Source: a virus (lineage: Duplodnaviria > Caudoviricetes). From it: a stretch of 64,000 nucleotides of DNA. The notes beneath the pieces are model-generated. The model did not search any database. It saw only the letters and a list, made by a program, of their open reading frames with translations, and was not told where the DNA came from. Below are positions 11,418 through 11,753 of the stretch, one piece after another (positions within the stretch are counted from its first letter, which is position 1; each line of letters starts with the position of its first letter). Location of the stretch: the IMG/VR virus record IMGVR_UViG_3300014208_000024, positions 64,001 to 128,000 of that record; one strand, given 5' to 3'. The position numbers were made by a program, and so were the translations under genes.

Positions 11418-11546
11418 TAATCGAGACATAATCGAGACATTAATCGAGACATTGTGTCCCGATTATGTCCAGATAAACCATTTTTTAACACTAATCCAGA
11501 CATATTCTGGACAAGTTGTCCAGAAAAATGTCCAGATTATATTGTC
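11418..11546. repeat. 3x TAATCGAGACA tandem plus several TGTCCAGA-like motifs in both orientations
   Basis: Read directly: copies at 11418, 11429, 11441; TGTCCAGA at about 11466, 11517, 11529; inverted TCTGGACA about 11506. Confidence 0.75.
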
Positions 11547-11753
11547 CCCCCAGCCGTGAATCGAACACTCGACCTCCTGCACGTTAATAAAACACTCCTG
11601 TTCAAAACAATTTCATTCAGACTTTACATTAACAGCTTCTTAATGCTCCACCCTCTTTACTTTTGAATCTCCCACTTGTATCCCACCTATTCAACTTGTA
11701 TAGCTAACACAAATCTTTCGGTGACAGGCGCTCTGCCACTGAGCTATGGGGGG
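11545..11753 (-). ncRNA. tRNA-like RNA with about 136-nt insertion in the anticodon loop
   Basis: CCCCCCA/TGGGGGG acceptor, GCTC..GAGC D arm, CCTGT/GCAGG stem separated by 143 nt, TTCGATT T loop. Confidence 0.7.

Follow-up and report, generated by a model that had tools for sequence, protein, structure and literature searches.

The window analyzed here is a 64,000-nucleotide stretch of viral DNA (bases 64001 to 128000 of a 372,283-bp IMG/VR virus record, about 28% G+C), and the element in question is a 209-nt tRNA-framed RNA gene on its minus strand, at positions 11545 to 11753, with an insert in the anticodon loop. Comparative sequence analysis suggests that this gene probably encodes a working, nondecoding look-alike of tRNA-Val, in which the 136-nt insert is a retained structured expansion and not an intron. 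Retention is favored because the tRNA frame holds up and compensatory changes show the insert to be conserved, because the hairpin loops of such inserts are enriched in self-complementary words, and because no splicing signature was found. The gene lies next to a gene for a 3-His cupin, and the RNA belongs to a widespread family of cupin-linked tRNA-Val look-alikes that is apparently not described before.

The tRNA frame and its cupin-linked family

Base 1 of the RNA is at 11753 and the discriminator A73 at 11545, as delimited by ARAGORN and by homologs. The acceptor 5' strand CCCCCCA (11747 to 11753) is paired at all seven positions with 11546 to 11552, and the acceptor 3' strand UGGGGGG with A73 occupies 11545 to 11552, with no encoded CCA. 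UA joins the acceptor 5' strand to the D arm GCUC-AGUGGCA-GAGC (11730 to 11744; helix 2 of the alignment described below, 100% paired), which has G18 and G19, and a single G joins the D arm to the anticodon stem. This stem is formed by CCUGU (11724 to 11728) and GCAGG (11576 to 11580) and is helix 3 of the alignment, 100% paired with one compensatory pair. AGGUC then leads to the T arm (11553 to 11570), GAGUG-UUCGAUU-CACGG plus one extra C at 11553, which combines a canonical T loop with an irregular stem: three good pairs are followed by the mismatches A50/G64 and G49/G65 and by the extra C ahead of the acceptor strand. The cloverleaf, the 7-bp acceptor stem, the D arm with G18 and G19 and the T loop UUCRANY are thus those of a canonical tRNA-Val, whereas a 7-nt anticodon loop with U33 as encoded and a regular 5-bp T stem are lacking.

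A preliminary description of this DNA had proposed a tRNA-like gene with a Val-type scaffold and an imperfect T stem, split by about 136 nt in the anticodon loop. Its coordinates span exactly base 1 to the discriminator on the minus strand, and 143 nt separate the two anticodon-stem strands, which leaves an insert of 136 nt if a 7-nt loop remains. The T stem is indeed imperfect, with its three pairs, two mismatches and one spare nucleotide, and the valine assignment agrees with AACGU before the 3' stem strand, with the N-A-C-R-U motif found family-wide and with the tRNA-Val(AAC) call that follows deletion of the insert in silico. Only the label of a purine-rich insert holds no more than loosely.

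ARAGORN reports the gene when introns are allowed; without the intron option it is silent at 11545 to 11753, where Rfam also gives no match to RF00005. ARAGORN also offers tRNA-Lys(UUU), with an intron of 115 nt and a long variable arm; this solution was rejected since it relies on a different 3' strand for the stem, and the GCAGG stem and the N-A-C motif are what the relatives align on. Transfer-messenger RNAs (tmRNAs) have tRNA-Ala-like ends, no D stem or anticodon stem, a tag reading frame and pseudoknots; ARAGORN finds no tmRNA here, and a D arm and an anticodon stem are present. The tRNA frame is far beyond chance, because dozens of phage contigs have a homologous interrupted gene at the same position next to the same protein gene.

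This protein gene (11760 to 12209, minus strand) ends 6 nt upstream of the RNA and encodes a 3-His cupin of 149 amino acids that matches phrog_4786, a family labeled as cysteine dioxygenase. Its invariant residues are His54-Asp-His56, His104 and His124, and its AlphaFold model is a cupin barrel (pLDDT, the predicted local distance difference test, 78.6). A fold search returned generic cupins only (auxin-binding protein, oxalate decarboxylase, HppE and others), and in the Atlas the protein falls only into clusters of hypothetical viral proteins, with cysteine dioxygenase as a weak lead.

The source of the window is a huge bacteriophage, since among the window's large open reading frames (ORFs) are those for a class I ribonucleotide reductase and a ClpB-like ATPase, together with one whose sigma-70 region 2-like match falls below the Pfam cut-off. 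When introns are allowed, ARAGORN predicts 47 tRNA genes for the whole record, almost all of them on the minus strand. Viral contigs scanned for exact patterns of both tRNA halves gave no match, nhmmer with the whole element as query gave weak matches only, and the neighboring RidA-like protein used as query led to no related loci. Homologs were therefore reached via the cupin protein, in 36 viral contigs, 80 of 397 metagenome matches and 4 contigs binned into metagenome-assembled genomes (MAGs). The latter (L119 to L122) are the only genome_contigs matches to the cupin and bear the MAG labels Woesearchaeota, Mycoplasmatota, Bacilli (a 376-kb contig) and Bacteroidetes; they are probably phage DNA misbinned into MAGs.

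Among 100 loci whose flanks are long enough, a strict pattern search detects a tRNA-shaped gene, on either side of the cupin gene, at a distance of at most 600 nt in 67 and of at most 60 nt in 37. A covariance search adds further members, among them L046, L049, L056, L061, L097, L098 and L119. At two loci (L008:2714-2793 and L013:2421-2501) the RNA 3' end abuts or overlaps the cupin start codon by 0 to 1 nt, where RNase Z-type cutting would leave a leaderless cupin mRNA. This tight linkage argues for a working RNA that goes with the cupin. A covariance model of uninterrupted members (R1) was not used for counts, as it acted as a generic tRNA model and scored no more than the 5' half of the element, at 16.4 bits. 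The model of the full element (R2) recovers many members, but the tRNA frame alone is worth up to about 70 bits; R2 matches are therefore no proof of insert homology between subfamilies.

Across 51 cupin-linked tRNA-shaped genes, a set that includes unrelated neighboring tRNAs, C1:G72 occurs in 41 and A73 in 43. The linked RNAs have the D arm UAGCUCA...GAGC in common and carry the pentamer N-A-C-R-U directly before the 3' anticodon-stem strand, with A at -4 in 39 of the 51 genes and C at -3 in 35. The part of the loop that lies 5' of N-A-C is variable in all members, amounting to 0 to 6 extra nucleotides in some and to a folded domain of 36 to 160 nt in others. The window gene fits this definition in its C1:G72, A73, N-A-C-R-U, variable 5' loop part and distance of at most 600 nt from the cupin gene. 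Roughly 60 related phage contigs have this unusual tRNA, with C1:G72 and A73, at 0 to 600 nt from the cupin gene. Full-text literature searches returned, beyond Devoto et al. (10.1101/356790; PMC6784885; Nat Microbiol 2019), nothing on phage tRNA introns or expanded phage tRNA mimics.

The full identity set of valyl-tRNA synthetase (ValRS) is present in the window gene, with AAC at 11583 to 11585 and A73 at 11545; A35, C36 and A73 are the bases read by this enzyme. Decoding geometry is another matter. Relatives without a long insert have loops of 6 to 13 nt (e.g., UUUUACGA, UUUAACUG, AAGCAACAC, CUGGAGACAU and ACUUUAAACAU), and among 17 aligned uninterrupted members the loop is 7 nt long in only three, with U33 in only one of those three. 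Since one to six extra nucleotides cannot be introns, the family is noncanonical even without inserts. The anticodon stem of L013 is that of L040 (UCUGU/ACAGA), yet its loop, UUUAACUG, has 8 nt, so that deleting the insert would give no canonical loop. Furthermore, the position before N-A-C is A, not U33, in L039 and L041, and the commonest equivalent of wobble position 34 is A (about 45% of members), a base avoided there in bacterial decoders except tRNA-Arg. Noncanonical loops in uninterrupted relatives with N-A-C-R-U kept throughout, the A in place of U33 and the frequent A34 all speak for a retained insert.

Other parts of the frame are also departed from. Many members have an irregular T stem: U-rich bulges occur in L003, L006, L008 and L013, and one additional base in the window gene and L019; the T-stem strand of L008, L003 and L002 has a bulge of 1 to 4 nt or, in L002, a 26-nt hairpin. 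An extra hairpin of about 90 nt lies in the D loop of L025 and L034, both with 8-nt anticodon loops, and L019:2179-2272 has a hairpin at 26/27. Such extra hairpins at other sites of the same frame argue for retention as well. The D-loop domain of L025:3405-3577 and L034:3528-3699 contains a hairpin of the form GAU-AGGCC-AUC that recurs in L040 and L091, there within the anticodon-loop insert; one small module thus turns up at more than one site of the frame.

The folded insert and its self-complementary loops

The closest relatives are L039, L040 and L041, with cupin proteins 85, 84 and 77% identical to that of the window. Each has an interrupted gene of 207 to 212 nt in the same place, 9 to 12 nt past the cupin stop codon. 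RNAalifold was applied to the four-sequence alignment, and this alignment also supplied the statistics given below. The insert is predicted to form two arms on the minus strand. The first, P-a (11684 to 11723; helices 4 to 6), starts with an outer helix CACC/GGUG directly after the anticodon stem, shows AU to GC or CG and CG to UA changes, and ends in an inner hairpin (about 11697 to 11711) with the self-complementary loop UAGCUA (about 11700 to 11706). The second arm, P-b to P-e (11590 to 11683; helices 7 to 10), comprises P-b (11679-11683/11590-11594), which closes the remainder of the insert, P-c (11663-11666/11607-11610), P-d (11650-11653/11619-11622) and the terminal hairpin P-e (11640-11646/11626-11632) with the loop GAAGCUG (11633 to 11639). 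Between P-c and P-d, AAGUAAAGA (11654 to 11662) lies opposite GAAUGAAA (11611 to 11618) in an internal loop that by eye looks like an AGUA/GAA loop-E motif. A junction strand, UAUUAACGU (11581 to 11589), is single-stranded; its AAC (11583 to 11585) and the GU that follows are positions 34 to 38 of a tRNA-Val loop.

Standard pairs fill 93.9% of the paired cells of the alignment, against 78.9 ± 2.0% after shuffling, and double-sided changes affect 24 of the 49 pairs, against 12.3 expected; neither value was reached in 500 shuffles. As a control, sliding the pairing partners by 1 to 3 columns left pairing at only 40 to 51%. Compensatory changes are found in 18 of the 29 pairs of the insert helices 4 to 10, and among the four sequences 14 of the 20 pairs of helices 7 to 10 have changed on both sides. 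A further copy in L097, located upstream of the cupin gene and found by covariance search, backs P-a, P-d and P-e independently, with CAUUAA/UUAAUG replaced by GUCGU/ACGAC. Covariance modelling from homologs, which the preliminary description had recommended, finds the insert helices kept through compensatory changes in close relatives.

These results bear on whether the locus is a dead tRNA gene broken by a chance insertion, for which the imperfect T stem and the failure of standard tRNA finders could be cited. The unconserved recent insertion that the preliminary description had named as fatal to its view is not what we observe, as the insert is conserved with covariation. Frame and insert are kept with compensatory changes where the neighboring protein is only 77 to 85% identical, and in more than 60 contigs the gene keeps its place next to the cupin gene, which makes a dead gene extremely unlikely.

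Within the closest relatives the internal loop contains invariant unpaired GUAA and AUGAA, and claims on motifs of this type are restricted to these relatives; as motifs common to all inserts, UGGGR, RGUAAR and AUGAA were not significant against shuffles (P = 0.19, 0.04 and 0.055, respectively).

A property of another kind was found in the predicted hairpin loops (n = 52) of 28 inserts, compared with 1000 shuffles. A self-complementary word of at least 4 nt occurs in 32 of the 52 loops (16.9 ± 3.2 expected) and one of at least 6 nt in 15 of the 52 (2.4 ± 1.4 expected), numbers that no shuffle reached in either case. The palindromes vary by member and include UGUACA, AACGUU, UGAUCA, GUUAAC, UAAUUA, UUGCAA, UCAUGA, UUCGAA and UCUAGA. 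Even the closest relatives differ by double changes that keep the palindrome, from AGCU to GGCC in P-e and from UAGCUA to UAAUUA in P-a. The conserved property of these loops is self-complementarity, not sequence.

In the window insert, each arm is capped by a loop with AGCU at its core. Intramolecular kissing of these two loops was rejected, since it fits only 3 of 5 relatives, whereas 9 of 10 loops are self-complementary by themselves. The pattern is that of kissing-loop dimerization sites and suggests pairing between copies of the RNA or with another RNA at 12809 to 12993. The latter is one of two more tRNA-framed RNAs (12655 to 12800 and 12809 to 12993, minus strand) located upstream of the RidA-like gene; a hairpin loop at 12809 to 12993 carries the palindrome CAGCUG, whose AGCU core recurs in both loops of the studied element.

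Retention or removal of the insert

The preliminary description had seen no group I core and no archaeal bulge-helix-bulge (BHB) motif, and our searches bear this out. Rfam, at E ≤ 10 over 11000 to 12300, reports no group I (RF00028) or group II intron and no self-cleaving ribozyme. A 3-4-3 BHB spanning both junctions is absent from the window and occurs in 4 of 28 family members, against 5.2 expected from shuffled inserts. No EndA-type endonuclease (PF01974) was found in the genome. The first bases of the insert are unconserved, and several members lack a terminal G.

Several points nevertheless weigh against retention. When the insert is deleted in silico so that 7 nt remain, ARAGORN calls a tRNA-Val(AAC) with U33. 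All four N34 variants occur in the family, and a free N34 with A35 and C36 fixed fits isoacceptor decoders as well as it fits ValRS recognition. A sealing activity that could join exons exists in the phage, since RtcB (G000:C1:10068-11324) and a PF09414 RNA-ligase-family protein (21794 to 22264, next to a tRNA-Leu cluster) are encoded, both outside the window. Moreover, the covariation comes from only 4 to 5 sequences, and the pairing structure and its statistics come from one alignment. Inserts of different subfamilies have no significant sequence motifs in common, so that a single function for all of them is unproven. Retention itself is a reading of the sequence, and valylation, loop-loop pairing and partnership with the cupin are predictions.

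The call after deletion, the N34 variants and the phage ligases would all suit a true tRNA-Val(AAC) with a protein-spliced intron, as would the fixed site of the insert on the 5' side of the loop in many relatives. An endonuclease would then cut at the three-way junction, and RtcB, the RNA-ligase-family enzyme or a host ligase would join the halves; the oversized megaphage tRNAs that Devoto et al. took as intron-bearing would be the same phenomenon. We regard this as possible but unlikely. BHB-like motifs stand at chance level and no EndA-type endonuclease is present, and RtcB was not found in two of five relatives, both near-complete and with interrupted genes. RtcB and RNA ligases are also ordinary tRNA-repair equipment of large phages. 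Splicing would leave unexplained the loops of 8 to 13 nt without U33 in uninterrupted relatives, and it sits poorly with irregular T stems and with the additional T-stem and D-loop hairpins. The palindromic loops and the covarying helices suggest that the insert has a use other than being removed.

A second route to removal would be an insert that excises itself as a small self-splicing or self-cleaving ribozyme of a new class. To our knowledge, the tRNA introns so far described in bacteria are group I introns that self-splice and lie in anticodon loops, and this precedent, the conserved covarying fold and the invariant unpaired GUAA and AUGAA of the closest relatives would be in keeping with such a ribozyme. 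We consider it very unlikely, given the lack of any Rfam match even at E ≤ 10, inserts (36 to 160 nt) that differ widely in sequence between subfamilies with no common core, the absence of an apparent pseudoknotted core and the unconserved splice-site bases, with no omega-G in the window, L019 and others. Of the two options left by the preliminary description, an unfamiliar class of tRNA intron and a tRNA-framed noncoding RNA, the evidence favors the noncoding RNA, and the intron class has become less favored.

A retained insert suggests the following course of events. The RNA is probably cotranscribed with the cupin gene that ends 6 nt upstream; no sigma-70-like promoter and no intrinsic terminator were found flanking the element. 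With tRNA-type ends and an intact D/T elbow, it could be cut out by RNase P and RNase Z as a stabilized, L-shaped body, and the CCA that is not encoded would be added, for which the phage has its own CCA-adding-type nucleotidyltransferase (283652 to 284089, outside the window). The anticodon stem would open into a three-way junction with P-a stacked on the stem without a linker and P-b to P-e as a side branch. What was the 3' half of the anticodon loop, UAUUAACGU, would stay exposed and present A35 and C36, which with A73 would let the host ValRS recognize, and perhaps charge, the RNA; no synthetase of the class I ValRS type was found in the phage. Because A35, C36 and A73 are kept and U33 and the 7-nt loop are not, the RNA is probably recognized by ValRS but unable to read codons. 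The expanded loop, and probably the irregular T stem, would keep it out of decoding, and the separate canonical tRNA-Val(UAC) that ARAGORN finds elsewhere in the record supports a nondecoding mimic. The AGCU loops may link copies of the RNA, which would act together with the adjacent cupin metalloenzyme.

How RNA and cupin would cooperate can be imagined in two ways. In a two-part system unknown so far, the aminoacyl group of a mimic charged with Val by the host ValRS, and held off the ribosome by its expanded loop and irregular T stem, might be the substrate of a 3-His cupin oxygenase, a tRNA-dependent chemistry outside translation. Alternatively, the self-pairing loops might join many copies into a scaffold that, during infection, captures ValRS or other tRNA-binding host factors. 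We offer this as a speculative and unlikely proposal.

A different protein partner was also weighed. An ORF of 501 amino acids at 19255 to 20760 (minus strand), 8 kb from the element, encodes a TROVE (Ro60) protein (E = 5e-19), and the RNA might be its Y-RNA-like, YrlA-style partner, with the long insert arm as the Ro-binding helix. Bacterial and phage YrlA RNAs, as Chen et al. are said to have described in 2014, join a tRNA-like domain to a long helix. YrlA, though, ends in its Ro-binding stem and has a closed acceptor, whereas the RNA studied here ends at the acceptor stem, and Rfam gives no Y RNA or YrlA match. None of 5 other phage genomes that carry the cupin-RNA module, of which three are 93% complete or more, has a TROVE gene, and the conserved neighbor is the cupin, not Ro60. 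A Ro60 partnership is thus highly improbable.

Neighboring features and closest known systems

The spacer between the RNA gene and the next tRNA (11410 to 11545) is built of short repeats, with AUUAAUCGAGACAU three to four times and UGUCCAGA three times. The repeats form inverted pairs, with 23-nt arms that are 83% complementary and a perfect 10-nt pair 1 nt apart, and the block has the look of an operator or of a spacer that folds. Two different amber-reading tRNAs (CUA) lie just downstream of the element, at 10251 to 10324 and 11335 to 11409 on the minus strand, and an ochre-type tRNA (UUA) is located at G000:C1:33634-33706. Translating TAG as Gln has little effect on the lengths of the window ORFs. 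The cupin-RNA module is likewise accompanied by CUA tRNAs in L008, L039 to L041, L060, L063 and L070. On the other side, a RidA/L-PSP family protein (12193 to 12636) and a PTH2-type peptidyl-tRNA hydrolase (13175 to 13552), both on the minus strand, flank a cluster of tRNA-like genes. The tRNA-shaped gene at 12998 to 13067 (minus strand) has a 6-nt loop, CUUCGA, and an ARAGORN anticodon given as 'tc', and it is the best R1 match of the window.

Devoto et al. described 'enigmatic' introns in the tRNAs of Lak megaphages and guessed, without a mechanism, that they are common in large phages. Like the window RNA, the Lak phage tRNAs are oversized genes with extra sequence inside the cloverleaf, conserved between phages and without an Rfam match. 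They differ in being Phe, Gly, Thr and Tyr tRNAs of gut phages, detected in the eukaryote mode of tRNAscan, and the Lak reports describe no cupin linkage, Val identity, variable loop length or self-complementary loops. The oversized 'tRNAs with introns' of huge phages have been unexplained since 2018, and the present locus offers a testable alternative for one large family.

The group I introns of tRNA-Leu(UAA), tRNA-fMet and the Azoarcus tRNA-Ile are likewise intervening sequences in anticodon loops of the bacterial world. They are at least about 200 nt long, however, with a P3-P9 core, a G-binding site, a U at the 5' splice site and a terminal G, and the window insert has 136 nt. BHB introns, processed by EndA and RtcB, resemble the family in their inserts of variable length at the anticodon loop, D loop and T arm, and RtcB is present in the phage; here, in contrast, no motif rises above chance, EndA is absent and the phage looks bacterial (sigma-70 region 2-like match below the Pfam cut-off, ClpB and ribonucleotide reductase). 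If the insert is spliced after all, it would represent the first non-group-I tRNA intron pathway in the bacterial world. YrlA and Y RNAs, which are phage-encoded among others, share a tRNA-like D/T elbow and a long irregular helix at the place of the anticodon arm, and a Ro60 gene is present here. Their topology is permuted, however, and Ro60 was not found in any of five relatives that carry the module.

For the loops, the closest design is that of kissing loops of the type of the human immunodeficiency virus type 1 (HIV-1) dimerization initiation site, in which a palindrome of 4 to 6 nt flanked by purines lies in a loop of 7 to 9 nt. This is an analogy with the insert loops, not homology, and dimerization here is a prediction. 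For the valine identity, the valine-accepting tRNA-like structures of plant RNA viruses, such as that of turnip yellow mosaic virus (TLS-Val), are the nearest precedent: viral RNAs with ValRS identity bases and a tRNA shape that are not decoders. TLS-Val and the window RNA both keep the A and C of the anticodon middle and 3' positions and the discriminator A. TLS-Val forms the 3' end of an RNA genome and has a pseudoknotted acceptor stem and a normal 7-nt anticodon loop, whereas the window RNA is a free-standing gene of a DNA phage with a normal acceptor stem, an expanded loop and only possible charging. Engineered tRNA scaffolds (Ponchon and Dardel), in which a foreign folded RNA is placed on the anticodon stem and the product is processed and stabilized by the cell, provide another analogy of design, not homology. 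If the insert remains unspliced, the window RNA would thus be a DNA-phage counterpart of the valine-accepting tRNA-like structures of RNA viruses and a natural instance of the tRNA-scaffold design.

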